From: Gammaproteobacteria bacterium
GTDB lineage: Bacteria > Pseudomonadota > Gammaproteobacteria > UBA4575
Length of the DNA: 64,000 bases
NCBI GenBank assembly: GCA_022824965.1
Contig: JAJDYY010000008.1
Coordinates: 320,284-384,283 of the forward strand
Reading direction: 5' to 3'
Shown here: piece after piece, positions 4,082-35,543 of the stretch
How the letters are laid out: every line of letters starts with the position of its first letter
How positions within the stretch are numbered: the first letter of the stretch is position 1
Notes under the pieces: generated by a model
Databases searched by the model: none
What the model saw: the letters and a program-made list of their open reading frames with translations, nothing else
What the model was told of the DNA's origin: nothing
Translations under genes and position numbers: made by a program

Positions 4082-4196
4082 GCCATACCAATAAATGGTT
4101 AAGTTTAACGGGCGGATTGGTTATAATTACACTGTACAATAAGTCAAAACGACAGTTTCGAACAGTCAGCGGAAAGCTATTGAATAGGAGTATTGC

Positions 4197-4781: not shown

Positions 4782-4922
4782 AACAAGGCGAACGGCAGGT
4801 CGCGCCTGACCTGCCGTTCGCGCCTGGCTTTCACTGATCGCCTGACAACCGCGTGAACATGCATCCCGGCGGCCCAAGTGGCTGCCGTTTTTATTTATAT
4901 ATGAAAAACCGTGTGACAGACC

Positions 4923-9552: not shown

Positions 9553-9574
9553 CCTGCGGTGCAGAGGTCTGGAA

Positions 9575-10423: not shown

Positions 10424-10441
10424 TGTCGCGAGACTGCGAGG

Positions 10442-16725: not shown

Positions 16726-18663
16726 TCAGGTCCATACAGTCAGTGAATTTCTGAGTTGTCCAATCGGAAGGAAGTTCTCTTCACACCAACGGAAAAGATA
16801 GTGCCTAGGCTTTGTGGTCAGTACCTGATAAAGCGAGGCTGCCCACTGTCCCCACTCACCGTCGCACCTAGCAAGAATCAACGTGCGAAACATAAGGTTT
16901 GTAGCCTTTAAAGTCTTGGCATCTATCGGAAAATTGCCTGCCCATACTATTGGCTGTGCATTGGCCCAAATTGTATTGACAAAATCTGCAACGATTTTTG
17001 TATTGGATTGAATATCTGCATTTTCTCCACCCACATAGGTACATAGAGCTTCCAGTTGATTCAAGTCTCGGCTTTCATCCTGCTCGAACACTGAAAGAAG
17101 CACTGTGGTGCTTACAGACACATATCCGTGCCGATGCTGCGCGAGATAGACAGCTGCTTCAGCGTAAGATTCGGCAGATATAGTTCCTGCCTGTTCTGCA
17201 CTAAATATTGCAGCTTGAATCCAGACACCCCTTGTGGAAAAGGCTTCTTGGGAATATTGCCGAATTGCAAGGTCCTCACTAACAAGAACGCGGGTCTCGC
17301 CAGCCATAACACCCACACTGAAGGCACCATCTGGAGGAACACGAATCAATCTCTCGCCAAGTTCCGAAAGATTGTTTGGCAATTGCACAGGCTCTACTGA
17401 GCAGTATTCCTCAATGCTTTTTATCAATGACTGCACCGCACTGATCCGTTTGTTCCGGTCTTCAGTGGTTTCAGCATGTCGAAAGAATTGCCCGTCTCGA
17501 AAGTCAAGGCACATCGTATCGCCTTCACCCAGACCAGCATGATCATCGATCATCTCTTTTAGTCGGTTTAGCTCATAAACAGGAATTGCCAAGGGACCAA
17601 GTCGCTCTTTTAACACTGGCAGTACTTTAAGAACTGCTGCATGCCAAGCCGTAAAAGCATCGAGAACTGCACCAGCACGCTCATGTTTCTGGATCACTCT
17701 CAGTGCTTTATCACACTCATCGTGTACACCGAAGCAAACCTTCACTTCTTCGTTTATGGAAACTAGGTATTGCGCAAACGCTATTGCACCGCCTGGCCAA
17801 TCTCCTGCGGCAACAACAAGCGGGACGCCATGTTGCAAGTAGAGATCCGCCTGCTGCCGTGCCATCGCGCTATACCGACGGACTTGCTCCAACACCGGCT
17901 CTATATCATCATCGGCAATGTTTAATGAGGCAAATCCATGTGCTTCAGGAAATCTTTGTCCGAAGTTAGCCGTGAGATGGTGAAATGCCTGTAACCACCA
18001 TGGCTTTAGTTCAGCTACCGACCATGTCTCTTTGACACCTAATGAATTGGTTTTTTCAAACTTATCTCCTATCCTTAACCCCAAACATTTCAAAATGAAT
18101 GAATTGCTATCCGTTTCCGCTTGACCCCATGGTCTGTCCTGAGACTCTCCAATCAATGCTTCGTAATCGCTTCCTTCTGCACTTGTCAGCCGGACCCACA
18201 TACCAGTGCTGACAGTATCACCGATGCCAAGCTCTTGGTCCGATGAAGTTGCCCTCAGTACGAGACCCATAAACTTGAGCACCAGTTCTACATTTGAAAG
18301 GTCTGTGACAAGCGCTTCGTAAGCGATATCGAGAGCACATGCAGGCTCTTCTGAAAAGTCAAAAAGAACATGACTAAGATCGATGCGGTCCATCGAAGCG
18401 CCTGTCAAATTCTCGACTTCCAAACCACTTACCAATTGCCTGATTGCATCCTGGTCATCTATGGCGAAGTATGCCCTTACCACACACAGTAACGTGTAAA
18501 TCTCAGGCCCCTCCTCAAATGCACTCAACAGCGGCGTGATCGCTTTCCCAAAATCACCTTTGTTGAAATGTAAAATTCCTTCCAGCTTCTGAAAGAAGGC
18601 ATTGCATCGAAGATCTGGTGCCAAATCAGAAAAAACCTGGTTGCCCGCTCCCGTACAGGGAAG
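16726..18663 (-). pseudogene. C-terminal portion of a giant Mrr-like nuclease / TPR-repeat protein (downstream frame)
   Basis: 632-aa ORF with helical TPR-like repeat content. Its frame is open upstream to 18663 and overlaps the preceding ORF's frame by about 135 nt that includes an A6/T6 run at 18630..18635. It is probably one gene with the next entry. Confidence 0.5.
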
Positions 18664-20624
18664 TCAAATGCAAGAGCCGTAGCTAGTGTACGAAGTTCCC
18701 CACTGTCACGATCAAGCGCTATCTGTCCATGCAGTGTTTCTATAGTTACATCCAGTAGCCCACGTGCAAGTGCCTCTTCGGCCAGTGTAAGACGGGCAAT
18801 GTATGTGTCATCACCATTCTGAAATGCCAGAGTTGCCGATTCGAATAGTAACTGGGAAATATCTTCTATTCCACGAGTACGTGCTGACTGTGCAAGCACA
18901 GTTAATGCACGTGTATTGCCTACAAAATCTCTACACCCCTTCTCCAGAACGTCACGCACATCCGCTGGCTCCGCCAATTCCATTCGTGCAATAACACCCT
19001 TTGCCTGGACGACACTCTTCTCTGGTTCCGGAAATTGATCCAGGTTTTCATCTGCAAATTCCAAAATTTTAGGCCAGTCCTTATTTGCTATTGCAATCTT
19101 GAACCGAGCAGTAATAACTCCTTCAACATTGTCAGCAAGCCCTGAAATAGTCTCTGAGGCTTGGGCCATATGACCTTGGTCAATTAATAGCGATGCGAGG
19201 TGAACTTTTATGGTTTCTTCGTCGGGAAACCGTCCATGGGCCTGCAGGCCTAGATTGACAGCAGCTTCACTGTTTCCAACAATATGGTACGCCGTCATTA
19301 GATTCATCGGTACCGAAGATAAATCCTTACTGCAGTATATACTTCTCTCTTGAACGCTCTCCCATAACGACTCATATATTGAGATGGCTTCATTCACATC
19401 ATCAACATTACCCAAGGGCTGCCCGCACATGTATCGCTCCCCACCCATAGCCCTTGAAAGCAAGGCATTAGCGCCAAGTTCTTGCAATGCCGCAATTTCA
19501 GGAAATTGACGATAAGCGGATATTGCCTCATCCCACCAGGAATACGGCTCTCCCCGTTCCATGAGCCACTGCACATGAGCCTCGGCAACTTCAGGTGTAT
19601 TCCGAGTTTCTTCAGGTATTCGTGAAATCGGATCGTCAATTGATTCATCATGAATCAGACTTTGGAGATAACACGCTGCAAGGCGTGCATTGCTGGGTTG
19701 ATTCTTTAATTCTTCCTCAGCAAAACTTCTCACGTAATCTCGGTTTCCCAAAAGCAGGAACCCCAGCGCCTTGTTTGCGATTGCTTTAGGATTCTCGGGA
19801 GCAAAATCCCAGGCAGAAATCAATCCAGTAGCCGCTTCCCTTTTCTGCCCAAGTTCCAAGTGACATGCAGCGATGTTTGTTTTGACCCGAAATCGGATAT
19901 GATTTGATGCATCGGAGGCAAGCCTTTTCTCAAGCTTTTGCAGTAATTCAAGGGCGGTTTCAGGCTTACTTTGAATTAGTTCTACATAATCGTTAATGTG
20001 TTTTTCGTGTTCTGAATGAATAGCAGCAGAGTCCGCTATCGCTATTTCACTACTTCTTAAGGAAGCTACTTCTTGGTGACCTACCTCAATTTGGGGAGAC
20101 AGCATATCTGATACCCTCTCGGGGATGTCTCTAATAGCACTTTCTATTTGATCTATCTGCGGCGTATGCGATGGGTCAAAGGCCTTGTGGGCTTCAGGGT
20201 GGCGTTGAATTTCGCGTTGTAATTTATCCCATCCAAAAATATGGATATTGAGATCTAGAGGTCTGGATTTACTTATCTCAAACGAAAGTTTATTTGCCAG
20301 ACTTTGGAGGTTCGCATCGTCAGGAGCGGTTGTGACAATTACATACTCCGTAAGTGGTGGTTCAAATTCTAATGCCTTATTAACCTCAGCACGAACTTCT
20401 TGCTCTAGAAGCTCGCGCCCAACTGCCTTTAATTTACATTGAATGCCAACCGGGCGAGATACATCGCCATCACGATGACCAAAAATATCCACGCCATGCT
20501 GACTTTGTCCTTTGCGGCCGTATTTGCTGGCCATTGGATCGTTCAATAAACAACGCCACAACACCTCATTGCAGTCTTCGAAATCTTGTTCATAAAGTGG
20601 CTTTGGAATCTGTATTGCCATCAC
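18525..20624 (-). CDS. N-terminal portion: Mrr-cat restriction-endonuclease-like domain fused to TPR/helical repeats
   Basis: The N-terminus (FEDCNEVLWRCLL...GQSQHGVDIFGHRDGDVSRPVGIQCKLK...YVIVTTAPDDANLQSLA) matches the Mrr-cat PD-(D/E)xK layout, with a D in GVDI and QCK. The rest is TPR-like helical repeats. No Walker A motif is present. Confidence 0.6.
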   Translation of the reverse strand: MMAIQIPKPLYEQDFEDCNEVLWRCLLNDPMASKYGRKGQSQHGVDIFGHRDGDVSRPVGIQCKLKAVGRELLEQEVRAEVNKALEFEPPLTEYVIVTTAPDDANLQSLANKLSFEISKSRPLDLNIHIFGWDKLQREIQRHPEAHKAFDPSHTPQIDQIESAIRDIPERVSDMLSPQIEVGHQEVASLRSSEIAIADSAAIHSEHEKHINDYVELIQSKPETALELLQKLEKRLASDASNHIRFRVKTNIAACHLELGQKREAATGLISAWDFAPENPKAIANKALGFLLLGNRDYVRSFAEEELKNQPSNARLAACYLQSLIHDESIDDPISRIPEETRNTPEVAEAHVQWLMERGEPYSWWDEAISAYRQFPEIAALQELGANALLSRAMGGERYMCGQPLGNVDDVNEAISIYESLWESVQERSIYCSKDLSSVPMNLMTAYHIVGNSEAAVNLGLQAHGRFPDEETIKVHLASLLIDQGHMAQASETISGLADNVEGVITARFKIAIANKDWPKILEFADENLDQFPEPEKSVVQAKGVIARMELAEPADVRDVLEKGCRDFVGNTRALTVLAQSARTRGIEDISQLLFESATLAFQNGDDTYIARLTLAEEALARGLLDVTIETLHGQIALDRDSGELRTLATALAFDFPVRERATRFFLIWHQIFDAMPSFRSWKEFYISTKVILGKRSRRC

Positions 20625-21038: not shown

Positions 21039-21992
21039 GTGGGCCATATTTCATTTCAAGAAAAAGAATTCCGATCTGCTGACGAATTATGGGATGCACT
21101 GAGCCCTACCAACAAACTTGTTAGGTCACCAGGCCAACTAATTTACCGTGGACAGGAAAATGCAGAATGGGGCCTCATACCCTCTGTGTTACGGAAAAGC
21201 CCAAGCAATCCTGCAACAATTGCATGGGGTGATAACATAACGGCTGACAACCAAATAAGCACAGAAATTGTGCTACTTGAAACCTTCGCGGGCTTCTGTG
21301 ACCAAGTCGGAGTTAAAATACCTAATGACTCGTTGAAATTTCGAAAAAACGTGCTCGCAGCTGAGAGGCAGGATGAGTATTTCACCAACCCACAATCATG
21401 GCCGAATCCAGCCCTGATTGAAGTGATGGCTCTGGCGCAACAGCACGGAGTGCCAACAAGATTGCTTGACTGGACAAAGAACCCTTATGCGGCCGTATAC
21501 TTTGCGGCTAGTGGAGCCCTCTCAAATGTTGGGAAATGGGGTGAAACTACGGAAACTGATAAATTGGCAGTATGGGTATTGAATATCGATCGAATTTCTG
21601 TATTCCACAGAGTGAATGTTGTCCAGCCTCCTGGTGCAATATCTCCCCACCTTGCTGCCCAGGCTGGCTTGTTCACAGTCTACCCTCACAGCGGGAGCCT
21701 CGGAGAGCCGTTCAATGTCGTTGGGCTTGAAAATCAATTTTCCATACTCCCAGATACTCCTTTGATGAAACTTACGATTCCTGTACAGCAAAGTGCCAGA
21801 TTAAACTGGTTGTGTGCCAAGATTGGGATCACTGGTGCAAGTATTTTCCCTGGTGCTGATGGAGCCGGAAGAGCTGTTATGGACACAGTCAACTCATGGG
21901 CAGCAGCCCGTCACAGTTTACTCTATAAAGCCATGAATCAAATATCAAACAGTCCTGATTGCCAAGATGCAAACAAATCGTCTATCACATAA
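21039..21992 (+). CDS. FRG-domain protein
   Basis: LIYRGQENAEWGLIPSVLR and QHGVPTRLLDWTKNPYAAVYFA match the two signature blocks of the FRG domain (PF08867). Confidence 0.65.
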   Translation: MGHISFQEKEFRSADELWDALSPTNKLVRSPGQLIYRGQENAEWGLIPSVLRKSPSNPATIAWGDNITADNQISTEIVLLETFAGFCDQVGVKIPNDSLKFRKNVLAAERQDEYFTNPQSWPNPALIEVMALAQQHGVPTRLLDWTKNPYAAVYFAASGALSNVGKWGETTETDKLAVWVLNIDRISVFHRVNVVQPPGAISPHLAAQAGLFTVYPHSGSLGEPFNVVGLENQFSILPDTPLMKLTIPVQQSARLNWLCAKIGITGASIFPGADGAGRAVMDTVNSWAAARHSLLYKAMNQISNSPDCQDANKSSIT

Positions 21993-22096
21993 AACATATA
22001 CACTGGAAATTTTCCTTTCGTATGCCTGTGTAGCTTTCCCCGCGACAGGCCTAAGGTGTAGATGATGGTTTACAGAAACTAGAAAAAGGAAATCAA

Positions 22097-22450
22097 ATGC
22101 AACGTGATGATGAATATATCAGAGACCTTCTTTTTGAAATTGAGAAGCAAGACAACTTCCTAGTGATGATTCTTGATACACTTGACGCTTCTCCTGCTGA
22201 AAGAAAAAAATTGTATCACGCTCAGCTTTTATGTGATGCAGGTTACATGATTCAGGTAAGTAATGCAGGCTATCGGTTGACATCTCAAGGACACGACTTC
22301 ATTTCGTCCATCAGGGACGAAGGTATATGGAATAAAACTAAGGCAGCAGTTGCTGAAACAGGTGGTAATGTAACCCTTGAGGTTATAAAAAGTCTTGCTT
22401 ATGGATTCCTCAAGAAGAAAATTTCTACTCATACTGATATAGAGTTATAA
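22097..22450 (+). CDS. DUF2513-family small protein
   Basis: 117 aa: MQRDDEYIRDLLFEIE...LYHAQLLCDAGY...LTSQGHDFISSIRDEGIWNKTK fits the DUF2513 family pattern. An RBS (AAAAAGGAAA) lies 7 nt upstream. Confidence 0.6.
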   Translation: MQRDDEYIRDLLFEIEKQDNFLVMILDTLDASPAERKKLYHAQLLCDAGYMIQVSNAGYRLTSQGHDFISSIRDEGIWNKTKAAVAETGGNVTLEVIKSLAYGFLKKKISTHTDIEL

Positions 22451-23357: not shown

Positions 23358-26300
23358 TCACACCATTTCTTCGGATAACATCTTTGCCTGGGTTAGTACT
23401 AACTCAACCGCACCTTTCTGCTGATCGGGAGGGTATTTGTATTTCCGTAGTAACTGACGAATGAGAATTCTCAGTCTTGCCCGAACACTTTCACGAACTG
23501 CCCAATCCACAGTCAGGTTTTCCCGCAGTTTTTTTGCAATCTCCCTGGCTATCTCAACGAGCACGTCCTCGCCCATCAATTCCTGTGCAGACTCATTCTG
23601 AGCAAGGGCATCATAAAAAGCCTCTTCCTCATCCGACAGATCATGGGCTTCCCTTCGCTTCAGGTCTTCCTGGAATTGCTTCGCCATGGCGATGAGCTCT
23701 TCAATCACCTGTGCCGCTTCAATCGCACGGTTCGCGTACTTACCGATGGATTTCTCGAGAAGCTCACTGAATTTACGTTGCTTGACAACATTGGTGCGGA
23801 ACCTGGTTTTGACCTCGCCCTTAATGAGTCTTTGCAGAAGTTCTACTGCCAGATTCTTGTGCGGCATCTTCATCACTTCTTTCAGGAAATCATCCGAAAG
23901 AATGGAGATATCCGGAGACTCCAGGCCTGCGAGTCTGAAAACATCGGATACGCCCTCACCCACGATTGCCTGGGACAGCAATTGCCGTAATTCAAAGTCC
24001 GTATCTCGAGGTGGCTTCTCTCCGCTTCCGCCTTTTACGAGTGGTGCACGCACTGCCTGATGAAATGCCACTTCAGGGGCCAGTTCCATGGCTTCATCCA
24101 GGGTTCCGCACAATGCAAAGGCCTTAGTCAATTGCAGGACGGTATCGCAGTACCTGCGCTTGCCGTCTTCCTGTTCAAGCACATGATCCATGCAGGCCGG
24201 GATGATCTGAAGCGCGTTTATCCTGTACTCACTCCAGTCCACAGGGTGTAGCAGGTCTCGTGCGACCTGGATCTTCTCTTTAAGGATCCGTAACGCTTCA
24301 GATGAATCAATCGTCGGTCTGCCCTTCCCTTTTGCCGCACTGTAGGTTGCCAAAGCCTCCCTGAGTTGCGGGGCAATGCCGATGTAATCCACCACCAGCC
24401 CACCGGGTTTGTCCTTGAAGACACGATTCACCCTTGCAATGGCCTGTGCCAGATTCGCGCCCTGCATTGGTTTGTCGACATACATGGTCGCAAGACAGGG
24501 TGCATCAAACCCGGTCAGCCACATGTCTCGAACAATAACAATCTTGAGAGGGTCTGAAGGATCTTTGAAACGCTTCTCAAGGTCTTTCTTCTGTGCACGG
24601 CTGGTATGGTGAGGTTGAAGTTCCAGCTTGTCGGATGCAGATGCCGTCATGATGACTTTTATTGCTCCGGACATGTGATCATCAGAATGCCATTCAGGAC
24701 GCAGGGCCACGATCTGGTCATACAGCCTGGCACATATCATACGAGACATGGTCACGATCATGGCTTTGCCAGGCTGTGTCTGACTGCGCATCTCGTAGTG
24801 ATCGATCAGGTCAACCGCCACCTCCTTCAGGCGTGTATCCGTTCCAACGATTGCCTCCAATGCGGACCACTGGCTCTTGGCTTTCTCTTTCTCCTGCTCA
24901 TCCGCTGTCTCACTGTCCAGAATCTCTTCCACTTCCTCATCGATTTGAGGAAGCTCGGCCTGGTTCAGGTTGATCTTGGCCAAGCGTGATTCATAGTAGA
25001 TCGGAACGGTAGCGCCATCATCCACGGCCTGCTGGATGTCGTAGACTGAAACGTAGTTGCCAAAAACCGCTTGGGTGTCGCGATCATCCTGGGAAATAGG
25101 TGTTCCGGTGAACGCGAGGAACGTCGCATTGGGCAAGGCGTCACGCAGGGACTTGGCCAGACCATACTTGATGGCCCCACTCTCGCTATCAATTTTTGCT
25201 TTGAACCCATATTGAGTCCGGTGTGCCTCATCCGCGATCACCACAATATTGTGACGATCCGTGAGCACGGGGAATCGCTCCTCATCCGCATCCAGACCGA
25301 ATTTCTGCATGGTTGTAAAGAAGATGCCGCCCGAAGGCCGATCCATCAAATGTTCCCGCAGTTCTGCACGGGAATCAGCCTGTTTGGGCGTGTCGTTCAG
25401 TAGTTCGCCTGAATTCGCAAAGACATTAAACAACTGGCCATCCAGATCCCTTCTGTCTGTAACCATGACAATGGTGGGGTTCTCCAGCCGAGGCTCCGAG
25501 ATCAAGCGCCCGGCCAGACACGCCATTTCGATACTTTTTCCAGCACCTTGTGTATGCCAGACTACTCCGCCTTTCTTGTCACCCTCCACGTTGCTCGCAG
25601 TCACCACGCTCTCGACTGCTACTTGTACGGCATGGAACTGGTGATAGCCGGCAATCTTCTTGATGAGGGTTCCGTCATCTTCAAATAGACAGAAGTACCG
25701 CAGGTAGTTGAGGAAGATTTCCTTGTTGAAAACTCCCTGGATCAGGGTCTCGAGCTGCTGGTGCTGGCCTAGGGGGTCCAGTTCGACACCATCAATGGTG
25801 CGCCACCGCATGAATCGTTCCCTGTCTGCGGAGATTGACCCCAAACGTGCGTAGATACCGTCTGATATGACCATACAAACGTTATAGCTGAACAGGTCCG
25901 GGATATCCGCCTTGTAAGTCTGTAACTGATCGAATGCGGTCCAGATGTCCGCATCCTCATCCGCACCATTCTTGAGTTCAATGACGGAAAGTGGCAACCC
26001 GTTTACAAACACCAATACATCTGGCCTGCGGTTATGTTTGTGCCCTTGGATCGTGAACTGATTGACGACCAGCCAGTCATTGTTCTCCGGGTCTTCAAAG
26101 TCAATTACTTTGAGTTGTTTGCCGACTTCCTGGTTATCTTCGTGGAAAGTGACCTGGATGCCTTTGGTCAGCCACTCATGCACTTTCCGGTTGCAGGGCA
26201 TCAATGCCGGGATGTTCGGGTTAGTCAATTGAGAAAGTGCCGTGCTGATTGCAGATTTCGGGATATCAGGATTGATGCGAGTCAGTGCTTCCTGCAAGCG

Positions 26301-26447
26301 ATCTTGAAGAATGACTGAACGGTAGTCTTTGCGTTCCGGTTCCTGACCATCCGGGGCAATTTCATACCCGCACTTGTACTGATAGCCGAGTTCCTTAAAC
26401 CAGTCGATGCTTAACAGTTCAACTTGATCTTCGGTCACCAGCGCCAC
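23358..26447 (-). CDS. hsdR: Type I restriction enzyme R subunit
   Basis: 1029 aa with an N-terminal PD-(D/E)xK nuclease region (PDVLVFVNGLPLSVIELK) and SF2 helicase motifs (HTQGAGKS, VIADEAHR). Confidence 0.9.
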   Translation of the reverse strand: MALVTEDQVELLSIDWFKELGYQYKCGYEIAPDGQEPERKDYRSVILQDRLQEALTRINPDIPKSAISTALSQLTNPNIPALMPCNRKVHEWLTKGIQVTFHEDNQEVGKQLKVIDFEDPENNDWLVVNQFTIQGHKHNRRPDVLVFVNGLPLSVIELKNGADEDADIWTAFDQLQTYKADIPDLFSYNVCMVISDGIYARLGSISADRERFMRWRTIDGVELDPLGQHQQLETLIQGVFNKEIFLNYLRYFCLFEDDGTLIKKIAGYHQFHAVQVAVESVVTASNVEGDKKGGVVWHTQGAGKSIEMACLAGRLISEPRLENPTIVMVTDRRDLDGQLFNVFANSGELLNDTPKQADSRAELREHLMDRPSGGIFFTTMQKFGLDADEERFPVLTDRHNIVVIADEAHRTQYGFKAKIDSESGAIKYGLAKSLRDALPNATFLAFTGTPISQDDRDTQAVFGNYVSVYDIQQAVDDGATVPIYYESRLAKINLNQAELPQIDEEVEEILDSETADEQEKEKAKSQWSALEAIVGTDTRLKEVAVDLIDHYEMRSQTQPGKAMIVTMSRMICARLYDQIVALRPEWHSDDHMSGAIKVIMTASASDKLELQPHHTSRAQKKDLEKRFKDPSDPLKIVIVRDMWLTGFDAPCLATMYVDKPMQGANLAQAIARVNRVFKDKPGGLVVDYIGIAPQLREALATYSAAKGKGRPTIDSSEALRILKEKIQVARDLLHPVDWSEYRINALQIIPACMDHVLEQEDGKRRYCDTVLQLTKAFALCGTLDEAMELAPEVAFHQAVRAPLVKGGSGEKPPRDTDFELRQLLSQAIVGEGVSDVFRLAGLESPDISILSDDFLKEVMKMPHKNLAVELLQRLIKGEVKTRFRTNVVKQRKFSELLEKSIGKYANRAIEAAQVIEELIAMAKQFQEDLKRREAHDLSDEEEAFYDALAQNESAQELMGEDVLVEIAREIAKKLRENLTVDWAVRESVRARLRILIRQLLRKYKYPPDQQKGAVELVLTQAKMLSEEMV

Positions 26448-28057
26448 TAGATATCTACCTCTTCAAGAAACTTTTCGGCATCTGAAATGTGGAGTTCACC
26501 CGAGATAAGCCTAGGGAGGAGAATATCGCGGAGCTGGGAAAGACAGTCATTTTCTTGACTCGCAATCTTAATTTTTGCAAATATTGGAAAGCTGATTTCT
26601 TCATAAATTGACATCACGTAATCAGACGGGCGGATCAACTTAAACCTATCAATATCTGATTTACCCAAATGAATGACTGTGGTCGCCGTCTCTGTAGACT
26701 CAACTTCATAAAGCGGTCTTTCCAGCCCGAACTTAAGGAAAGCAGTGGGGATATTTGTATTTGGGATAAATTTACAGATTCGCTGGTTCATCCAAGAGTC
26801 CTTTCCTGTCCAGTAATAACACCTAAATTCACCATCCATCCCGACAACTAGGTCACCTGCTTTGATTAAAGTTCCTTTTGGATGTGCTTCTTCTGTAAAA
26901 ACTTCTGATCCACCTTTTGCAAGGTCTCTAATTCTCACAAGAGGCAATCCTCGCCTGTCAGAATTAAACAACTTGGACTTAAATGGCGCTCCATAAATTA
27001 CTTCACACAAATCGTAGATTGAAGCAATACTCCACCCCTTTGGGATCTCCCCAATCTCCGACTCCACCAAAGTATCAGGGAATAAATCACTGATTTCAGA
27101 CGGAAGACCCGTAGGATGGCCTTCTGCCTTTGCTCGGACAGGGTCAAAGTCAACAAACCATGATTTGAAGATTGCCTTGGCTATCTCTTCAAGGGTTTTG
27201 TTGGTTTTTTGGTTGAGTTCGATTTTGTCGTCGAGGGTGCCGAGGATATGGGCGATGGCACGTTGCTCGGAAAGAGGTGGAAGAGAAATAGCTATATGGT
27301 CTAAAGCTTCAGCAGGCACGCGTTGGCGCCCTGAAGTACCAGTCATCTGACCAATCGCATACTCACGAAACCTGTTCCATCTCGTCAGGTAGTAGGCGAA
27401 ACCACCATCTGTGACATCCGGGCGCCCACGGATAACTATAAATTCGGTAGAGCCATGTGCTGATATCATCTGCTTTGTAGCGTTGTAGCGAGCAATCTTG
27501 CCATTCTCAAGACATGGCGTGATTCGAGCCATGAGCGTGTCGCCATCTAGGAAGCGAGAGCCCCCACCTCTGAATTCACGCTCTTCTATTGCATACGTAT
27601 TTCTTGAATCTCCGTTGATAGCAGCCATGCCAACAAAAGGGTAGGTCTCGCCGCGGACAAGTTGCACCTTCGGATTAACCTCAACCGCTTGACTGAAAGG
27701 CACCTCACACCAATCTGAACTGCTTTCCGGGACAGGAAAAAGTGTTTTGTGCTCTTCTATAACCTGCCTAAAGCCACCACTGACTCGATTCATGTCCACG
27801 ACATCAACTGTATAAGGAAGGCTGGAGTCTTCGAAAGCATCCTGCAGTATATTGATCGTCCTGAAGTCCAACGGCGTATCGCCCTCGACTGCTAAATCAA
27901 GATCAGACGAATCTTTTGTTGTCCAAGTGGCACGGCTGCCAAATACCCATACCTTCACATCACTCGGCAAGTGAGTGCACAGGATATCCTGCACAATTTT
28001 CAAGTGGTCAGAACGAATATCAACGGAACTAACCAAGGGTCCGATTCTTCTTCTCAA
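26447..28057 (-). CDS. hsdS: Type I R-M specificity subunit HsdS with an in-frame N-terminal MNT-type nucleotidyltransferase (HI0073-like) domain
   Basis: Residues 1 to about 100 carry the NTase motif VFGSRATWTTKDSSDLDLAV plus LPYTVDVVD (MNT antitoxin-like). The remainder has two TRDs and the conserved HsdS central and C-terminal coiled-coil repeats. No stop or obvious internal start separates the two parts. Confidence 0.75.
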   Translation of the reverse strand: MRRRIGPLVSSVDIRSDHLKIVQDILCTHLPSDVKVWVFGSRATWTTKDSSDLDLAVEGDTPLDFRTINILQDAFEDSSLPYTVDVVDMNRVSGGFRQVIEEHKTLFPVPESSSDWCEVPFSQAVEVNPKVQLVRGETYPFVGMAAINGDSRNTYAIEEREFRGGGSRFLDGDTLMARITPCLENGKIARYNATKQMISAHGSTEFIVIRGRPDVTDGGFAYYLTRWNRFREYAIGQMTGTSGRQRVPAEALDHIAISLPPLSEQRAIAHILGTLDDKIELNQKTNKTLEEIAKAIFKSWFVDFDPVRAKAEGHPTGLPSEISDLFPDTLVESEIGEIPKGWSIASIYDLCEVIYGAPFKSKLFNSDRRGLPLVRIRDLAKGGSEVFTEEAHPKGTLIKAGDLVVGMDGEFRCYYWTGKDSWMNQRICKFIPNTNIPTAFLKFGLERPLYEVESTETATTVIHLGKSDIDRFKLIRPSDYVMSIYEEISFPIFAKIKIASQENDCLSQLRDILLPRLISGELHISDAEKFLEEVDI

Positions 28058-28466
28058 GCTGTATCAAGAGATAACGTGATTCTGCGAGAAAGTCAGGAGC
28101 ACTGTTTAAAACTTCTTGTGCCTTCTGTTCATCATACGTATGACTTGTGGTGCCTCTGTTGCGGCGATACTCTCTCCAAACAACAAGTTCAGCCTGCACT
28201 AACGACTGTTTGGATGCCTCACGTATCACATCATTAAAAGACATGTCGTCAACCTCTACAGGATTAGCAGAAGCTAGTTCCAGGTAGCGCTTAATCATTT
28301 TAAAGGACAACTCATAGGTAAATTCAAAAGCTTGAATTACAGCCGCCCTCATATGTCGCTTGAGACGAGGCTCAGCCATTGTCAACTCTGAATCATATAT
28401 CTCAAGAGCCTCTTCTAGTTGTGAAATGGCTTGTTTCAACGACGACAGGTCCAAAGGCAAAGGCAT
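28029..28466 (-). CDS. HepT-like HEPN toxin (HI0074 / NTase substrate-binding family)
   Basis: 145 aa with an intact Rx4HxY HEPN motif (RGTTSHTY) and HI0074-family N-terminus (LSSLKQAISQLEEALE). It overlaps the MNT::hsdS start by 29 nt. Confidence 0.7.
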   Translation of the reverse strand: MPLPLDLSSLKQAISQLEEALEIYDSELTMAEPRLKRHMRAAVIQAFEFTYELSFKMIKRYLELASANPVEVDDMSFNDVIREASKQSLVQAELVVWREYRRNRGTTSHTYDEQKAQEVLNSAPDFLAESRYLLIQLEKKNRTLG

Positions 28467-28544: not shown

Positions 28545-30101
28545 CTATCCTGATCTTGCAAACCCCAACTTTTTTAGGTTTTCAGCGATAGTCTGATCAA
28601 GCTGAGCACCTTCAACCTGCTGCGTATGCAGTTGCGCAGCCAAGTGTCTCATCTTGTCTTCGAAAGGCTCACCGTCATCCTCTTGTGGCGCAGCCCCAAC
28701 ATAGCGTCCAGGTGTGAGGACAAATCCACTCTTCTCAATCTCATCAATGGATGCCGACTTACAAAAACCCAATACATCCTCGTACTCTTCTCCCTGCTTC
28801 CACGCATGCACTGTATCTGCAATCTTGGCAATGTCTTCGTCAGTCAGGACCCTGTTGACCCGTGTCTCCATCGTTCCCAGCTGACGCGCATCAATAAACA
28901 AGGTCTCCTCACGCCTGCCACGACCATTCGCAGTCTTGTCATTAGTCATAAACCACAGGCATACAGGAATCTGTGTGTTCAGAAACAACTGGCCCGGCAG
29001 TGCTACCATCACTTCCACCACATCACCACGGATCATTGCCTTACGAATCTGGCCTTCGCTGCTTGCGTTCGAACTCATGGAACCATTTGCAAGGACAACG
29101 CCGACCTGTCCTCCTGGTCGCAGCTTCCACAGCATGTGCTGCAGCCATGCGAAGTTTGCATTCCCCACAGGGGGTCTGCCGTATATCCAGCGAGGATCTT
29201 CCTCATACTTCTCTCCACCCCAGTCAGAAATGTTGAAGGGTGGATTTGCCATGATGTAATCGAACTTCAAATCCGGGAACTGGTCCCGTGCAAAGGTATC
29301 CGCGGGTTCTTTACCTAAATCTGCAGCAAATCCCCGAATCGCCAGGTTCATGGCGGCCAGCCGCCAGGTTGTAGGGTTGCTCTCCTGCCCGTAGATGGAG
29401 ATATCGTCCACCCGGCCACCATGTGACTGCACAAACCTTTCACTCTGAACGAACATCCCGCCTGACCCGCAACAAGGGTCATACACCCGACCAGTATGCG
29501 GCGAGAGGATGGCCACCAGGGTTTTCACTACATGTGAAGGGGTATAGAACTGCCCACCCTTCTTGCCCTCGGCTGAGGCAAACTGACCCAGGAAGTACTC
29601 GTAGACCTCGCCCAGCAAGTCACTGGAGTCGTATTTGTCACTGAATCCGATGGTGGAGATCAGATCAATCAGCTCACCCAGTACCCCCGGACCCAGCTGT
29701 GCCCGCCCGAAGCGTTTGTCCAGCTTCCCCCGCAGGGATGGATTTTCGTTCTCTATCAGGGTCATTGCCTTGTCCACAAGGGACCCAATATCAGGTTGCT
29801 TTGCCTTGGCTCTGAGAGATTCCCAACGTGCCTCTTGTGGCACCCAGAAGACATTGTCTTGTGTGTAATAGTCACGCTCCTCAAGCGCTTCTTCGAACTC
29901 AGCAGGGGTTTCGCTTAAAAAATATTCAGACGAGGGCTCTGACACCATGCGCCGGATTTCTTCCTGCTGCTTAATGAAGGTGTCTGAGATGTATTTGAGA
30001 AAGATGAGGCCCAGCACGATGTGCTTGTACTCCGCTGCATCCATCTGCGCGCGAAGCTTGTCCGCAGACGCCCATAACTTTTTCTTTAAGTCATCACCCA
30101 T
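28545..30101 (-). CDS. hsdM: Type I R-M DNA methyltransferase subunit (N6-adenine)
   Basis: HsdM N-terminal domain ([32 protein letters not shown]), AdoMet motif I (DPCCGSGGM) and NPPF catalytic motif. Confidence 0.92.
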
Positions 30102-30722: not shown

Positions 30723-30890
30723 ACAGGTTGGTTAAATACAGGTTATGGTTTTGTTATTTTAGCAAGCTGATTAGTATCGGGGTGGGTGGAGCAGGTACTG
30801 CACAAACATCACAACCCAAAATTATCTACTACCCTTTGTTTCCGTTAATCAGAGTTGGTTCACCTAACGGGAGATGAGGCAAGATTACTC

Positions 30891-31940
30891 ATGTACAACA
30901 AGAACTATGAAGGTAAGGCATGTGATGCCGTCGTGAAAGCCATCGAGAAGCGAACGGGCAAAATACGTGCACACATTCGCCGTCCCGAGGTGGATGGAGT
31001 CGGTCCGCCGGTGGATTTGCGCTTGAAGATAGGAGCCCAGGAGTATGTGATCGAGCACACGCGAATCGAGCTGTTCGAGAATCAAATCAAGATGGAAGTA
31101 ACCATCAGAGAGATCCTTGACTACTTCAAGGAAAATCTCTCACTGCCATTCCCGAGCCCGGCGTACTACGAGTTGCAATACCCAATTGACGTTTCATTGC
31201 CAGACGGAAAAGTCAAACGCAATCGTGCTTTGAAGAGCCTCGCAGACTGGGTATGCATGAATGAAGGGTTGCTGCGAGACAAGATGATGTGTTGGCCCGA
31301 GGGACCCTATGATCTCTACTATTCTGATCATTCTGTGTGTGGCAAGCCGGATGGTTTTTATTGTGCATTCGAATTGCGTCGCTGGCCAGATGCCGTCTCT
31401 ATCAGACAAAAACCCGGTTCTCTTTGGTCAAGACCGATTTATCCGGAAGATATGAACCCTCTGATAAGAAAAAGGCTGATGCGGGCATTTTCCAGGAAAT
31501 GCAAAAAGCTTGAAGCGTGCAAGATGGATGGGGCGCGGACGGTCCTGGTACTGGAAAGCGGGGGTCCAGGACTCACACATTTTAAGTTCAGGGGTGACCT
31601 CCTTCCAGGGATATTGGCAGAACACAAAAATGCGCCGGATGAGATTTTTCTGGTGCAGACCTATCACGATCTCTGGGAGGTCGTTCCCTTGAAGCATGGC
31701 AACGGTCATTGGCCTGATACGGGCATGCCTGAACTAGGCGGGTCTTATTACAATCTAAACAACTCTGACATTCCAAAATGGTTGGACAGCCTGCCTCGAC
31801 CTATGCGTGAGGGCCTGCAGCTGGATCGAATGCACATACCCTATGAACAGGGATTTGCATTTGAAAGCTTTGAGAAAGGTGAACTGAGTGACCTGACCCA
31901 AGCGAGACGGACAGAAATACAGACAGGCAATGGCACATGA
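30891..31940 (+). CDS. Hypothetical protein of about 349 aa, no recognisable domain
   Basis: Long uninterrupted ORF with the start set at the ATG at 30891 (the ORF track starts at TTG 30855). The N-terminal EVDGVGPPVDLRLKIGAQEYVIEHTRIE could be a degenerate PD-(D/E)xK-like element, which is speculative. The C-terminal half is rich in Trp, Pro and His. Confidence 0.5.
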   Translation: MYNKNYEGKACDAVVKAIEKRTGKIRAHIRRPEVDGVGPPVDLRLKIGAQEYVIEHTRIELFENQIKMEVTIREILDYFKENLSLPFPSPAYYELQYPIDVSLPDGKVKRNRALKSLADWVCMNEGLLRDKMMCWPEGPYDLYYSDHSVCGKPDGFYCAFELRRWPDAVSIRQKPGSLWSRPIYPEDMNPLIRKRLMRAFSRKCKKLEACKMDGARTVLVLESGGPGLTHFKFRGDLLPGILAEHKNAPDEIFLVQTYHDLWEVVPLKHGNGHWPDTGMPELGGSYYNLNNSDIPKWLDSLPRPMREGLQLDRMHIPYEQGFAFESFEKGELSDLTQARRTEIQTGNGT

Positions 31941-32044: not shown

Positions 32045-32257
32045 TCACACCTGCTGCCTGGACTCGATCCATTGGATCACTGTGTGTTCATGCCAGCCGA
32101 CCGAGCGTGCACCGGTCAGCTTGATCTGTTTGGGAAAATCACCCTTGGCGATCTGGGCGTAAATCGTGGAGCGGGAAAGTCCGGTCATGCGCTGGACATC
32201 CTTCAGTCTTACAATCCTGTAGTTCATAGTAGGTTCCTCATACTTTTTTGGTTGCAA
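32045..32257 (-). CDS. alpA: AlpA-family prophage regulatory protein (excisionase-like)
   Basis: MNYRIVRLKDVQRMTGLSRSTIYAQIAKGDFPKQIKL shows the HTH typical of Phage_AlpA. The start may be the internal Met at 32227. Confidence 0.8.
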   Translation of the reverse strand: MQPKKYEEPTMNYRIVRLKDVQRMTGLSRSTIYAQIAKGDFPKQIKLTGARSVGWHEHTVIQWIESRQQV

Positions 32258-32266
32258 TCTTCACAG

Positions 32267-33133
32267 TCATCTTCCTAGGTAGGCTGTGCTGATCTGTTCT
32301 CTCTCGTGGCCGAGTTCCTGGCTGATCGTCATCCGGGCCTGGTGGTCCAGCTCCCGCTGTTCCGGGGTCAGTGACTTGCTATCGGGCCCACCTGCGGCTG
32401 GAGATTTCCAGCCAGTCAGTTCCTCGTAGCGTTCCTGTGCGTACGCATGGCGCAGCCCATGCATACTCGAAAGTCCGGCCCGGGTGGTGTTGCCTTCGTA
32501 GACTCTCAGCTGCTGTACATAGCTTCGGTGCGGCGGGATCAATGAGCCGAAGCCAGCCAAGGCCCGTGTGCGGTCAAGGATCGCTCTTTGATGTTCTGTT
32601 CGAACGGGGATCGTTCGGAGCTTGCCGCCCTTGGTCCAGCTGGCCTTGAGCCGGAGGTGATCCTTCTGATCCGCATAACTGGGCATGAACTTCATGGCCT
32701 CCTCGCGGCGCAGCCCAAAGGCCCGCTGCAGTTCGAGACTCATGCGCACATGAATGTCCTTGACCTTGCTGAGTTGGGTTTGGGTGATGTCCTTGGCTTT
32801 ACTCTCGTTGGTGACGAACCTTCGGTCCGGGATGCCATAGAATTCATTGGATCGGGCGATGACGTTCTGCTTGTTGACCTTGTCGGCCCACCATCTCAGT
32901 GCAGCCATCCGGTTCTTGATCGTCCCGATCGAGAGTTCCTTTTCCTGCCACTGCTTCACCAGCGCCTCGATGTGCTTGGGCTTGAGTGATTTTGACTGCA
33001 TCTTGCGGTAGCCCATCGCATGCAGCTCATTGGCCATCAGCGTCAGCATGCGCTCTCTATTTCGTTGCGTGGCATAGCTGCCTTCCCGGCAGTGCCGGCA
33101 AAGCTGTTTCAGCTGGTGATTAAGATTTCTCAT
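32267..33133 (-). CDS. Tyrosine recombinase / integrase-family protein (second recombinase of the island)
   Basis: HGLRHAYAQ (HxLRH box) and C-terminal STAYLGR (catalytic Tyr). The start is set at the MRNLNHQ ATG at 33133. Confidence 0.7.
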   Translation of the reverse strand: MRNLNHQLKQLCRHCREGSYATQRNRERMLTLMANELHAMGYRKMQSKSLKPKHIEALVKQWQEKELSIGTIKNRMAALRWWADKVNKQNVIARSNEFYGIPDRRFVTNESKAKDITQTQLSKVKDIHVRMSLELQRAFGLRREEAMKFMPSYADQKDHLRLKASWTKGGKLRTIPVRTEHQRAILDRTRALAGFGSLIPPHRSYVQQLRVYEGNTTRAGLSSMHGLRHAYAQERYEELTGWKSPAAGGPDSKSLTPEQRELDHQARMTISQELGHEREQISTAYLGR

Positions 33134-33514
33134 GGTTCCAAGCCTTTCCGTGTTCTTTCTCTTCGGTGAGTGTTTCTGGCCTTCTGTCCGCCTTGGCGGT
33201 TCAGGTTCGCTTTCGCGACATGGCTCCATGGGACACAACTCCCTCAATGACTTGAATGGGCCTCAGTCAGGCCACACAGGTCCTCTTCGGTCGAAGAGTG
33301 ACTCCGTGCCAGTCCAAGATGCCCCAAAGGGGCGACAGTTCAAGATGGTGATACCTCCTTTTCAGTCATGCGGATCGCTCCGCGGGATTTAAAAAATAGC
33401 CCGGTGCACAGCATTCCTGCCTGGTCCCGAAGACCAGACCGGGGTGCCGTTCACGGGCTTAGATAAATGTCACGTACAGGCGAACCCGCACGTGCCGACA
33501 GGCAGAATGCCTTG

Positions 33515-34112: not shown

Positions 34113-35303
34113 TCACGTGTCGGCTTTCAACTCGTCGAGATAGTCTGCCCATACCTGCATCATCTCTCTTCGCTCTGGCAGATGGGCAGTGCGGTTGTAA
34201 GCACGCCCGTTTGGATCACGCACACTGTGGGCAAGTTGGTGCTCGATATAGTCTGGACGAAACTTGAGCACCTCATCCAAGATCGTTCGTGCCATCGCCC
34301 GAAACCCATGGCCGCTCATCTCCTCCTTGCCAATCCCCAGGCAGCGCATAGCAGCCAGAATGGCGTTATTGCTCATTGGTCTGTCGCCCTTAGGACTCCT
34401 TGCGCTGGAAAATACATACTGACCATTTCCGGTCAAAGGTCTTAATTCCCGCAAAATCTCAACAGCTTGTCTTGAAAGAGGTACGATGTGTTGGGTCCGG
34501 GTTTTGGTCACCTGAAAACGCCACTCGGCATTATCCATATCCATATCCTCCCACTGTGCGTTGCGGAGTTCGCCAGGGCGTACAAAAACCAGCGGCGCAA
34601 GCCTAAGAGCGCAACGTACAGGGAGTGTTCCCTCGTAACCATCGAGTGTCCTCAGGAGTTTCCCTACTTCTTTGGGCTCAGTGACTGAAGCAAAGTGCTT
34701 CCCTTTCACAGGGGGCAATGCGCCCTTCAAGTCTCCCGAAGGGTTGTACGTGGCGCGACCAGTGGCAATCGCATAGCGAAAAACCTGGCTGCAGTAGCTT
34801 AGCACCCTATAAGCAGTTTCCAGTGCCCCACGCTGTTCGATCCGCTGAACTGTCTCAAGTAGTTGGGGTGCTGTAATTCTAGTAATCGGCCGACTGCCAA
34901 TCCATGGGAATACATCTCCTTTCAGTCTACTAATGACGCGAGTCGCATGGCCAGAAGACCAGTGGGGTGCATACTTGGCAAACCATTCATTTGCAAGGGC
35001 CTCGAAACTGTTCGTTGTCTCTTCAGCTTTTGCAGCTTTTTCTGCCTTGCGCTGCTCGCTCGGGTCGACTCCGTTCACTAGCAGCTTGCGGGCCTCATCA
35101 CGCCTAGTACGTGCATCCTTCAGCGTGACATCGGGATAAACACCTAGCGAGAGGCGCTTCTCCTTCCCTTCAAAACGGTACTTCAAACGCCACCACTTTC
35201 CTCCGTGGGGCGCAACTTCCAGGTACAGCCCACCGCCATCAAACAGCTTTCTAGCTTTTTCACCAGCCTTGGCATTTCGGATTGCAGCATTGGACAAGCT
35301 CAT
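34113..35303 (-). CDS. int: P4/CP4-57-type tyrosine integrase
   Basis: MSLSNAAIRNAKAGEKARKLFDGGGLYLEVAPHGGKWWRLKYRFEGKEKRLSLGVYP is the classic P4-integrase N-terminus. The C-terminal catalytic region carries HGFRAMARTIL and an LAHS tail. The gene is adjacent to the tRNA 3' end. Confidence 0.9.
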   Translation of the reverse strand: MSLSNAAIRNAKAGEKARKLFDGGGLYLEVAPHGGKWWRLKYRFEGKEKRLSLGVYPDVTLKDARTRRDEARKLLVNGVDPSEQRKAEKAAKAEETTNSFEALANEWFAKYAPHWSSGHATRVISRLKGDVFPWIGSRPITRITAPQLLETVQRIEQRGALETAYRVLSYCSQVFRYAIATGRATYNPSGDLKGALPPVKGKHFASVTEPKEVGKLLRTLDGYEGTLPVRCALRLAPLVFVRPGELRNAQWEDMDMDNAEWRFQVTKTRTQHIVPLSRQAVEILRELRPLTGNGQYVFSSARSPKGDRPMSNNAILAAMRCLGIGKEEMSGHGFRAMARTILDEVLKFRPDYIEHQLAHSVRDPNGRAYNRTAHLPERREMMQVWADYLDELKADT

Positions 35304-35466
35304 GGGGGCAACTTCCCTTATGAATGGTGTGCTTGCCCCCAATTCTGCCCCCAGTTGCCCCCGGATGTCAATAAATCTCAAAGGATCACTTTGGACGCAA
35401 TACCACTGTAAGTGTATGATTATATGAATATATTAGGATGTTATAGGACGTCTTTGGACTTTGACT

Positions 35467-35543
35467 TGGTGGCTATGGTTGGACTTGAACCAACGACCCC
35501 AGCATTATGAATGCTGTGCTCTAACCAACTGAGCTACATAGCC
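35467..35543 (-). tRNA. tRNA-Met (anticodon CAT, elongator-like)
   Basis: GGCTATGTAGCTCAGTTGGTTAGAGCACAGCATTCATAATGCTGGGGTCGTTGGTTCAAGTCCAACCATAGCCACCA on the minus strand. It has a cloverleaf with a CAT anticodon loop and an encoded CCA. Confidence 0.85.

Follow-up and report, generated by a model that had tools for sequence, protein, structure and literature searches.

The window analysed here is a stretch of 64,000 nucleotides from a gammaproteobacterial contig. Its minus strand carries what reads as a four-gene type I restriction–modification (R-M) operon (hsdM, a HEPN gene, MNT::hsdS and hsdR) on a tRNA-Met-linked defence island, with predicted restriction and methylation activity (Table 1). 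The features of a type I system are present: an HsdM with N6-adenine methyltransferase and N-terminal domains, an HsdS with two target-recognition domains (TRDs) and a co-oriented, three-domain HsdR. The hsdM product is 55–59% identical to that of all related loci, and the GTG start of hsdR and the stop codon of hsdS have one base in common (TAGTG). An initial annotation, made from the sequence alone, had proposed this gene order, with an MNT nucleotidyltransferase at the start of the reading frame that continues into HsdS; Pfam and NCBIfam profile matches place all of these genes where it put them. No minus-strand terminator was found inside the operon. The scan for promoters and terminators across the operon returned no more candidates than shuffled controls and is uninformative about a separate promoter for the toxin–antitoxin genes.

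Table 1 Features of the hsd operon in the window
Feature	Coordinates	Strand	Evidence or remark
hsdM, type I methyltransferase subunit, 518 aa	28545..30101	minus	PF02384 (N6_Mtase) 7e-106; PF12161 (HsdM_N) 9e-25
HEPN gene, HepT-like HI0074-family predicted RNase toxin, 145 aa	28029..28466	minus	PF08780 3.3e-31; TIGR01987
HEPN catalytic/AMPylation motif R-x4-H-x-Y, RGTTSHTY, aa 104–111	28134..28157	minus	read from sequence
8-nt overlap of HEPN stop (TAG) with likely TTG start, TTGGTTAG	28029..28036	minus	also seen in relatives
MNT::hsdS, single ORF, MNT + 12-aa linker + two-TRD HsdS	26447..28036 (529 aa)	minus	most likely start TTG 28036
MNT (minimal nucleotidyltransferase), HI0073/MntA-like	27749..28036	minus	PF18765 2.9e-11; PF01909 9e-8
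GSx10DxD motif, GSRATWTTKDSSDLD, aa 40–54	27896..27940	minus	read from sequence
VDVVD, third acidic residue, aa 84–88	27794..27808	minus	read from sequence
Inter-domain linker, aa 104–115 of 536-aa numbering, HKTLFPVPESSSD region	27713..27748	minus	no stop, no usable start
HsdS moiety: TRD1, central conserved region, TRD2, distal helix, stop codon	26447..27712	minus	Methylase_S 7e-20, two stretches
hsdR, 1029 aa	23358..26447	minus	TIGR00348 630 bits (cut-off 284.55); HSDR_N, SWI2_SNF2, T1RH-like_C

The HEPN protein passes the cut-off of the TIGR01987 (HI0074) model (84 bits against 55.8), and an SD-like GGAGA lies just upstream of its ATG. The catalytic motif that the initial annotation had described as intact is indeed so, and none of the 20 distinct HEPN partner genes that were checked has lost it. 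PF08780 is the sole domain match, and the ABC/Rad50-like ATPase part of PrrC- and RloC-type proteins is absent; the position of the gene between hsdM and hsdS resembles PrrC and RloC in layout rather than in family membership. No PADLOC model matches the HEPN protein.

The closest solved relatives by sequence are HI0073 and HI0074 of Haemophilus influenzae (1NO5 and 1JOG), members of the same small two-gene HEPN/MNT family, with which the initial annotation had suggested an alignment: the HEPN protein matches 1JOG at 5.5e-22 and the MNT domain matches 1NO5 at 1e-17, with about 41% identity. HI0073 is free-standing and about 114 aa long, whereas here the same domain forms the N terminus of a 529-aa HsdS and the pair lies inside the hsd operon. 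The Polbeta/NTP_transf_2 matches cover aa 20–106 of the 536-aa open reading frame (ORF). In the AF2 model of the whole fusion (mean pLDDT 87), two independently folded domains are joined by a linker with pLDDT below 50 at residues 111–113. The MNT domain (pLDDT 77–94) retrieves 1NO5 in Foldseek (TM 0.86, rmsd 1.5 Å), as well as the MNT antitoxin 8XEO/8XEH, MntA (7BXO), 6M6U, 7AE9 and 5YEP. It scores 40.9 bits against the NCBIfam MntA equivalog model NF047752, below the cut-off of 60; by sequence it is a relative of the HI0073 type rather than a close orthologue of MntA. The remainder bears out the proposed two-TRD HsdS: PADLOC recognizes it as Specificity_I (3e-89), the model has long helices at 262–302 and 479–519, and its fold matches 1YF2 (1.5e-21), 3OKG, 5YBB and 2Y7C in Foldseek.

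The listed ORF of 536 aa (26447..28057, minus strand) begins at the first TTG, at 28057. The likely start is instead the TTG at 28036, which gives 529 aa. It is favoured because it produces an 8-nt overlap with the HEPN stop codon (CCCTTGGTTAG), as in the closest relatives (CCCTTGACTAG), because it was picked by the gene calls on three other assemblies, and because a near-identical MNT in the related protein P0021 begins MVSSVDIR. The identical TTG overlap of 8 nt occurs in five related loci (L001, L008, L011, L012 and L034), and in all 20 distinct HEPN partners checked the HEPN stop overlaps the MNT start, by 4–53 nt. This arrangement suggests translational coupling of the two genes. The order is toxin first (HEPN, then MNT), a point that the initial annotation did not raise; the typical order reported for MNT–HEPN pairs is the reverse (PMC3710099). 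It is this toxin-first order that brings the C terminus of MNT next to hsdS.

The in-frame MNT–HsdS fusion is real and not an artefact. The ORF is continuous, and three other assemblies, which come from different samples, contain the 2,020-base stretch without a single base difference. Some related loci from low-coverage long-read assemblies (L008, L010 and L030) are visibly broken, but if the long ORF here came from a frameshift introduced in sequencing or assembly, or from a pseudogene in decay, that identity would be hard to explain, as would the intact catalytic and structural motifs, the confident AF2 model and the hundreds of fused relatives; an origin of this kind is effectively refuted. 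It is also highly improbable that HsdS is made separately from an internal start and free MNT by termination or processing, so that the fusion exists only on paper. In-frame start codons near the junction, where the initial annotation had called for a search around codon 100, are limited to an ATG at aa 89, which falls within the MNT core, and a GTG at aa 119. The GTG could in principle serve, but it lacks a properly spaced SD and its use would remove the invariant W116. HsdS relatives that are not fused begin with M-x3-4-W, 3–5 aa before W116, whereas the fused relatives have no conserved Met, Val or Leu before it; only 6 of 101 have a Met within 8 aa of the conserved W. No stop codon follows MNT, and gene callers on four assemblies return one product of 529 aa.

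The fused form is present in 100 of the 120 closest relatives in a MAFFT alignment, so a stop codon between MNT and HsdS, which would have spoken against the fusion, is not the norm among homologues. Relatives have a linker segment of 19 to 52 aa (from a conserved F to the conserved W) that is rich in G, L, P and S and is always in frame. GSx10DxD is present in the fused relatives, with P0042 alone failing the pattern. A profile search of 1.84 billion representatives gave 348 matches at E ≤ 1e-30. Of the 150 best, nearly all continue from MNT into HsdS; scored with a purpose-built HMM, 102 of these 150 contain the central conserved region of HsdS, and the others are mostly fragments that run from MNT into a TRD. 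At the level of genome loci, 27 are fused, 1 is cleanly split and 2 are decayed. The conserved operon in related loci is hsdM, a PF08780 HEPN gene, MNT::HsdS, optional inserts and hsdR. The taxa represented are Chloroflexota, Acidobacteriota, Gemmatimonadota, Alpha- and Gammaproteobacteria, Rhodothermales and Latescibacterota. MNT::HsdS is a large, old, multi-phylum family, with hundreds of 50%-identity clusters in at least six phyla, mostly from uncultured organisms. The description of the fusion as unusual holds in that it is absent from textbook HsdS proteins and from the searchable literature, but it is recurrent and not a peculiarity of this genome. P0021 is instructive: its MNT differs by 4 substitutions in the first 94 aa, and it has a 33-codon insertion in the linker and a different TRD2, yet it is still one ORF, which argues for selection on the reading frame.

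Variation around this design is informative. Among 46 loci, none has HEPN without MNT, whereas three fused loci (L028, L031 and L032) have no HEPN gene within 6 kb; a HAD-like gene takes its place in one of them, and the other two carry an ImmA-like gene. A toxic HEPN and a protective MNT would be expected to give such an asymmetry. The three loci also indicate that MNT::HsdS can persist without the toxin in cis, and that MNT might have another role. Some relatives have two tandem MNT domains before HsdS. Free-standing HEPN→MNT pairs that are 65–69% identical occur outside R-M loci, so the module is able to exist on its own. Unfused versions embedded in R-M loci are found on an Acetobacter ascendens plasmid and in a Rhodothermales MAG, and L048 is of this kind; co-residence without fusion is therefore possible (L048; Acetobacter ascendens plasmid). 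On plasmid NZ_CP015170.1 of A. ascendens LMG 1591 the order HEPN, MNT, hsdS, hsdR (WP_070325478, WP_003630865 and WP_070325477 among the products) and the orientation are the same as in the window, but MNT (100 aa) and hsdS are parted in the same frame by a stop codon and 12 nt, hsdS has its own ATG and RefSeq annotates three ordinary genes. This version is only about 31% identical to the window protein. Programmed read-through at the in-frame stop of the unfused loci L048 and L054 was considered and rejected: two in-frame junctions out of two would arise by chance with a probability of 1/9, and that of Acetobacter resembles a recombination joint (AT-rich, with a truncated MNT tail). A megablast of the whole operon gave no match in E. 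coli genomes and, in plasmids, only three fragments of about 80 bases with 81–83% identity; this near-empty result indicates that the element does not come from a well-sampled cultured lineage. Viral contigs scanned with an MNT-junction profile yielded no relatives and no evidence for phage carriage.

Several characterized systems resemble parts of this locus. Type VII HepT/MntA systems (Shewanella oneidensis SO_3166/SO_3165 and the Aphanizomenon flos-aquae HEPN/MNT pair) have in common with it an Rx4HxY HEPN, a GSx10DxD MNT and adjacent, overlapping genes. In the work of Yao 2020 and Songailiene 2020, the HEPN toxin is reportedly neutralized by oligo-AMPylation of the tyrosine. The present system, known from sequence, differs in that the toxin gene comes first and the antitoxin, which falls below the MntA cut-off, is covalently attached to a subunit of the R-M system instead of being a small protein of its own. 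The best functional analogy is PrrC of the EcoprrI type Ic hsd locus, a toxin that is physically tied to a type I enzyme: this HEPN-superfamily RNase is encoded between hsd genes, silenced by the R-M complex and freed when Stp of phage T4 attacks (PMC3710099). PrrC, however, is a large ABC-ATPase–HEPN protein that lacks an enzymatic antitoxin and is masked through non-covalent binding, whereas here HEPN is a stand-alone protein and the covalent MNT::HsdS fusion provides the link to R-M. In the pneumococcal type I tvr/SpnIV locus, the toxin–antitoxin-like pair tvrAT (Phd–Doc) lies between hsdM and hsdR (PMC6265443). It belongs to a different toxin–antitoxin family, has separate genes and no HsdS fusion, and regulates a recombinase rather than acting in addiction.

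The best explanation, which we hold with moderate confidence, is that a type VII (HepT/MntA-like) toxin–antitoxin module has been hard-wired to the R-M complex. A HepT/MntA-type pair of the HI0074/HI0073 family would have inserted directly upstream of hsdS, and loss of the stop codon between antitoxin and hsdS would have produced one polypeptide in which a short flexible linker connects an MNT adenylyltransferase to a complete HsdS. By homology with the Shewanella HepT/MntA and Aphanizomenon HEPN/MNT systems, HEPN alone would be toxic, cleaving RNA and arresting growth when unmodified, and MNT would neutralize it by AMPylating the tyrosine of the RGTTSH-T-Y motif (Y111) in the HEPN dimer, which would keep the RNase silent. 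The architecture implies that an MNT may sit on every M2S1 or R2M2S1 complex, made 1:1 with it. Because MNT is part of HsdS, the neutralization of newly made toxin would depend on the continued synthesis and integrity of the specificity subunit. Such wiring could provide a second line of defence by abortive infection, called on when host expression is shut off by a phage or when the phage attacks or occupies the R-M complex, by analogy with PrrC and EcoprrI. Alternatively, it could addict the cell to a type of R-M system that would otherwise be lost easily. The data are compatible with both purposes; we slightly favour the abortive back-up. Nothing about the linker, which is variable and disordered, points to allosteric communication between HsdS and MNT.

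Two other readings of function deserve weight. The fusion could be passive, a toxin–antitoxin pair that came to lie beside hsdS, lost its stop codon and was tolerated because the N terminus of HsdS is free, with MNT and HsdS acting independently. The pair would then do no more than stabilize the island as an ordinary addiction module, with no functional cross-talk to restriction. The variable and disordered linker, the occurrence of the same pair as a free module and the unfused embedded arrangements all fit this account, tvrAT offers a precedent, and a neighbour-joining tree of 182 MNT domains with at least 20 switches between fused and stand-alone forms suggests easy gain and loss. Some of these switches are, however, probably truncation artefacts of low-coverage assemblies, and the fused form predominates across a very large family of many phyla and has survived linker indels and TRD swaps, a persistence beyond what a neutral accident predicts; we judge the passive account somewhat unlikely. 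Rather improbable in our view is the original proposal for HI0073/HI0074, in which the pair is not a toxin–antitoxin system but a two-subunit nucleotidyltransferase, here tethered to HsdS with HEPN as the substrate-binding subunit and acting at the DNA site on DNA ends, a phage protein or HsdM/HsdR. PF08780 is named for that role, and the loci without HEPN and the tandem MNT domains are in keeping with it. Against it, every HEPN partner retains the RNase motif Rx4H and the tyrosine that is AMPylated in characterized systems, proven HEPN toxin/MNT antitoxin complexes are among the closest relatives of known structure, and HEPN never occurs without MNT.

A more specific form of the hard-wired module is conceivable, although we consider it unlikely: MNT::HsdS could be a guard device, in which occupation, distortion, depletion or degradation of the type I complex would stop the AMPylation of new HEPN, and the RNase would then abort the infection. 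Candidate triggers would be DNA-mimic anti-restriction proteins (such as Ocr or ArdA), Stp-like peptides and host shut-off. A guard device, if true, would represent a widespread form of ‘anti-anti-restriction’ in which innate immunity is covalently wired to suicide or dormancy.

Type I R-M systems and HEPN/MNT toxin–antitoxin pairs are both well known, and HEPN genes have been noted near R-M loci before. The covalent fusion of antitoxin and specificity subunit represents a new variant relative to the searchable open-access literature, in which we found general HEPN/R-M clustering, PrrC and tvrAT but no description of an MNT::HsdS fusion (absence there is not proof). The fusion is a ‘Rosetta-stone’ link, which argues that the two systems act together physically. 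HEPN toxins in immunity loci have been noted by Makarova et al. to lack an antitoxin (PMC3632139), which a guard device would supply, and coupling of immunity to suicide has been hypothesized for R-M loci (PMC3632139, PMC3506569). That hypothesis had no identified antitoxin partner; MNT::HsdS offers a concrete and testable molecular route, with parts that are small and enzymatically tractable.

PADLOC recognizes the fusion protein only as Specificity_I and does not catalogue the arrangement as a defence system. MNT::HsdS proteins are annotated simply as ‘restriction endonuclease subunit S’, and the label ‘type I restriction enzyme S subunit’ is sometimes given in error to free MNTs.

Four consecutive minus-strand genes with no terminators between them (hsdM, HEPN, MNT::hsdS and hsdR) make up the operon in the window. 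The initial annotation, which placed a HepT/MNT pair inside a type I restriction–modification (R–M) operon and read the MNT nucleotidyltransferase as fused in frame to HsdS, is correct in its gene order and in its description of the fusion, as the domain matches, motifs and open reading frames (ORFs) show. The HEPN protein carries the motif RGTTSHTY (R104, H109 and Y111), both GSRATWTTKDSSDLD and VDVVD are present in the nucleotidyltransferase part, and the hsdS stop shares one base with the GTG start of hsdR (TAGTG).

Genes and other features of the operon and its surroundings (window positions).
Feature	Position	Strand	Description
TPR gene and PIN–TPR–GreABC gene, overlapping ends	16726–20624	minus	two large genes: 699 aa; 632 aa (4e-15)
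FRG-domain gene, then DUF2513 gene	21039–22450	plus	317 aa, PADLOC candidate PDC-S15 (6e-34); 117 aa
hsdR	26447..23358	minus	1029 aa; TIGR00348, 630 bits
MNT::hsdS (long ORF)	28057..26447	minus	first ~100 residues Polbeta/NTP_transf_2; remainder Methylase_S, two matches
HEPN gene	28466..28029	minus	145 aa; PF08780, 3e-31; TIGR01987 'HI0074 family', 84 bits (cut-off 55.8 bits)
hsdM	30101..28545	minus	518 aa; N6_Mtase, 7e-106
361-aa ORF	30855–31940	plus	between hsdM and the integrase/AlpA genes
AlpA gene	32045..32257
Second integrase gene	32267..33247		Phage_int_SAM_2/Integrase_1
P4-type integrase gene	34113..35381	minus	adjoins tRNA-Met
tRNA-Met	35467..35543	minus	end of low-GC stretch

The fusion withstands a search for an internal hsdS start. 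The ORF contains no stop codon between its MNT and HsdS parts, and the 2,020-base stretch spanning HEPN and the fusion ORF recurs without a single difference in contigs from three other samples. Near the junction, in-frame start codons are limited to an ATG at aa 89, which falls within the MNT core, and a GTG at aa 119, which lacks a suitably spaced Shine–Dalgarno (SD) sequence and would lose the invariant W116; neither is a usable restart. Unfused HsdS relatives begin M-x3-4-W exactly where the linker of the window protein ends, and a Met lies no more than 8 residues from the conserved W in just 6 of 101 fused relatives. The first TTG in the ORF listing is at 28057; however, the TTG at 28036 is much more likely to be the true start, because it overlaps the HEPN stop by 8 nt (CCCTTGGTTAG), follows a purine-rich stretch 10 nt upstream (GAGAAGAAG) and yields the 529-aa product of the gene calls in three other assemblies, and because residues 1–9 have a pLDDT below 50 in the AlphaFold2 model. 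The same 8-nt overlap occurs in the closest relatives (L001, L008, L011, L012 and L034; CCCTTGACTAG), and no SD-like sequence precedes TTG 28057.

The AlphaFold2 model (mean pLDDT of 87) consists of two parts joined by a low-confidence linker. Residues 16–103 form a compact alpha/beta MNT domain that Foldseek matches to HI0073 (1NO5; TM of 0.86, r.m.s.d. of 1.5 Å and 41% identity), as well as to the MNT antitoxin 8XEO/8XEH and MntA (7BXO/6M6U). The second part is a classical HsdS, with fold matches to 1YF2, 3OKG, 5YBB and 2Y7C.

The fusion is not a one-off. A search for other nucleotidyltransferase–HsdS fusions found that 100 of the 120 top-scoring database relatives of the full-length protein are fused (about 520–570 aa), the remainder being ordinary HsdS proteins of 414–460 aa; a pattern search located GSx10DxD in every fused relative among these 120 except P0042. 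Between the conserved F in the final MNT helix and the conserved HsdS W lie 19–52 residues (shortest, at 19, in the window protein), with many G, L, P and S; this segment is always in frame. The MNT of one relative, P0021, differs from that of the window by 4 substitutions in the first 94 residues, with a 33-residue insertion in the linker, a TRD1 that is ~70% identical and an unrelated TRD2; this points to specificity domains that have been reshuffled by recombination behind a constant MNT, with the frame still kept. We scored 1.84 billion cluster representatives with a profile of MNT, linker and the beginning of HsdS and obtained 8,760 matches with E ≤ 1e-3, of which 348 reach E ≤ 1e-30. The HsdS central conserved region is present in 102 of the best 150, most others are truncated fragments in which MNT still runs into some TRD, and TRD1 types are diverse. 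Some relatives (P0239, P0241, P0248, P0255 and P0284) have two tandem MNT domains ahead of the HsdS part; as MNT antitoxins are usually dimeric, these may supply an intramolecular dimer on a monomeric HsdS.

We compared three metagenomic loci and 42 from species-representative genomes. Fused loci have the order hsdM, PF08780 HEPN, MNT::HsdS, 0–4 inserted genes and hsdR, with HsdM 55–59% and HsdR about 49% identical to those of the window. The host records are metagenome-assembled genomes (MAGs) of Dehalococcoidia/Chloroflexota, Vicinamibacterales, Gemmatimonadota (Ca. Palauibacter), Alphaproteobacteria/Rickettsiales, Arenicellales, Rhodothermales and Latescibacterota. A stop codon does not normally separate MNT from HsdS: the genome loci comprise 27 fused (including a second HEPN'/MNT' lineage, far more divergent, in L033, L036, L039 and L041), 1 cleanly split (L048; a stop, 6 nt and then an ATG for hsdS), 2 decayed (L010 and L030) and 12 with plain hsdS and neither MNT nor HEPN. 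We examined 20 distinct HEPN partner genes: R-x4-H-x-Y is intact in every one, and each overlaps the start of MNT by 4–53 nt. In L033 (Latescibacterota; 4196–7431), hsdM is followed by a stand-alone HEPN–MNT pair and then by a divergent HEPN' and an MNT' fused to HsdS. In L001 (Dehalococcoidia MAG; 8638–11184), four inserted genes separate MNT::hsdS from hsdR, among them KwaA (Kiwa) and one for a ThsB-like TIR protein; here the hsd operon is a landing pad for other defence genes.

Searches with the MNT domain alone recovered stand-alone MNTs of 93–175 aa that are up to 69% identical. The two inspected each form part of a free HEPN→MNT pair that overlaps by 20 nt and is surrounded by metabolic genes, far from any R–M system; their HEPN proteins are 66% identical to that of the window. 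The toxin-first order is therefore a property of this HI0074/HI0073 subfamily and places the MNT C terminus next to hsdS. A neighbour-joining tree of 182 MNT domains requires that fused and stand-alone forms interchanged at least 20 times, a count that is biased upwards, some short proteins being truncation artefacts. The plasmid of Acetobacter ascendens LMG 1591 (L054) provides a cultured, unfused embedded case (HEPN, a 100-aa MNT, a stop plus 12 nt, hsdS and hsdR), annotated in RefSeq as three ordinary genes. In both cleanly unfused embedded versions (L048, 6290–6310; L054, 6301–6316), MNT and hsdS are in the same frame, separated by one stop plus 6 or 12 nt (chance probability of 1/9). The junction in Acetobacter is AT-rich and resembles a joint left by recombination. 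Two free MNTs of about 103 aa (P0206 and P0218) bear the JGI label 'type I restriction enzyme, S subunit', presumably a mis-annotation propagated by profiles trained on fused MNT::HsdS.

Across all 46 loci, HEPN never occurs without MNT, and three loci have MNT::HsdS with no HEPN within 6 kb. L028 (5200–6000) encodes a HAD-like hydrolase directly upstream of the fusion, and L031 (5000–6000) and L032 (2300–3200) encode an ImmA/IrrE-like HEXXH peptidase upstream of it; the genome of L031 also holds L029, which carries HEPN. Such an asymmetry would follow from a harmful HEPN and a protective MNT. It adds to the intact motifs and to the homology with solved HEPN-toxin/MNT-antitoxin complexes in supporting a type VII-like mechanism, in which the HEPN motif tyrosine would be AMPylated by MNT and the RNase thereby silenced. 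The MNT scores 40.9 bits against the MntA equivalog model, under the cut-off of 60.

Makarova et al. (PMC3632139) pointed out that an antitoxin was lacking from immunity loci with HEPN toxins; in the window operon the predicted antitoxin is present, as a part of HsdS. It would be a stoichiometric, attached part of every methylase and restriction complex, with a supply that depends on translation of hsdS. Functionally, the nearest parallel is PrrC: the EcoprrI hsd locus encodes this HEPN anticodon nuclease, which the R–M enzyme masks and the T4 Stp peptide releases (PMC3710099). The arrangement could be a back-up that aborts infection when the R–M complex is attacked or depleted; it could instead stabilise the R–M island post-segregationally; or the fusion could be passive and involve no cross-talk. 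Loose coupling is favoured by the variable, disordered linker and by the unfused versions that exist; selection is favoured by how dominant and persistent the fused form is. A distinctive function of the fusion is hypothetical.

HEPN/MNT pairs, type I R–M systems and the clustering of HEPN genes or toxin–antitoxin homologues with R–M loci are already known (PMC3710099, PMC2701414 and PMC6265443). Full-text literature searches found no description of the MNT::HsdS fusion, and PADLOC has no model for it. The arrangement is real, widespread, unstudied and readily testable, and combines known kinds rather than constituting a new kind of system.

The operon lies within a low-GC stretch (about 16–35.4 kb; 43–53% compared with 56–65% outside) that is a mobile defence island. 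The 361-aa ORF has no Pfam or PADLOC match. The TPR and PIN–TPR–GreABC genes, also without a PADLOC match, represent the 'TPR-GreAB-C-PIN' type of predicted conflict system. The FRG-domain and DUF2513 genes are further candidate defence genes adjoining the R–M operon.
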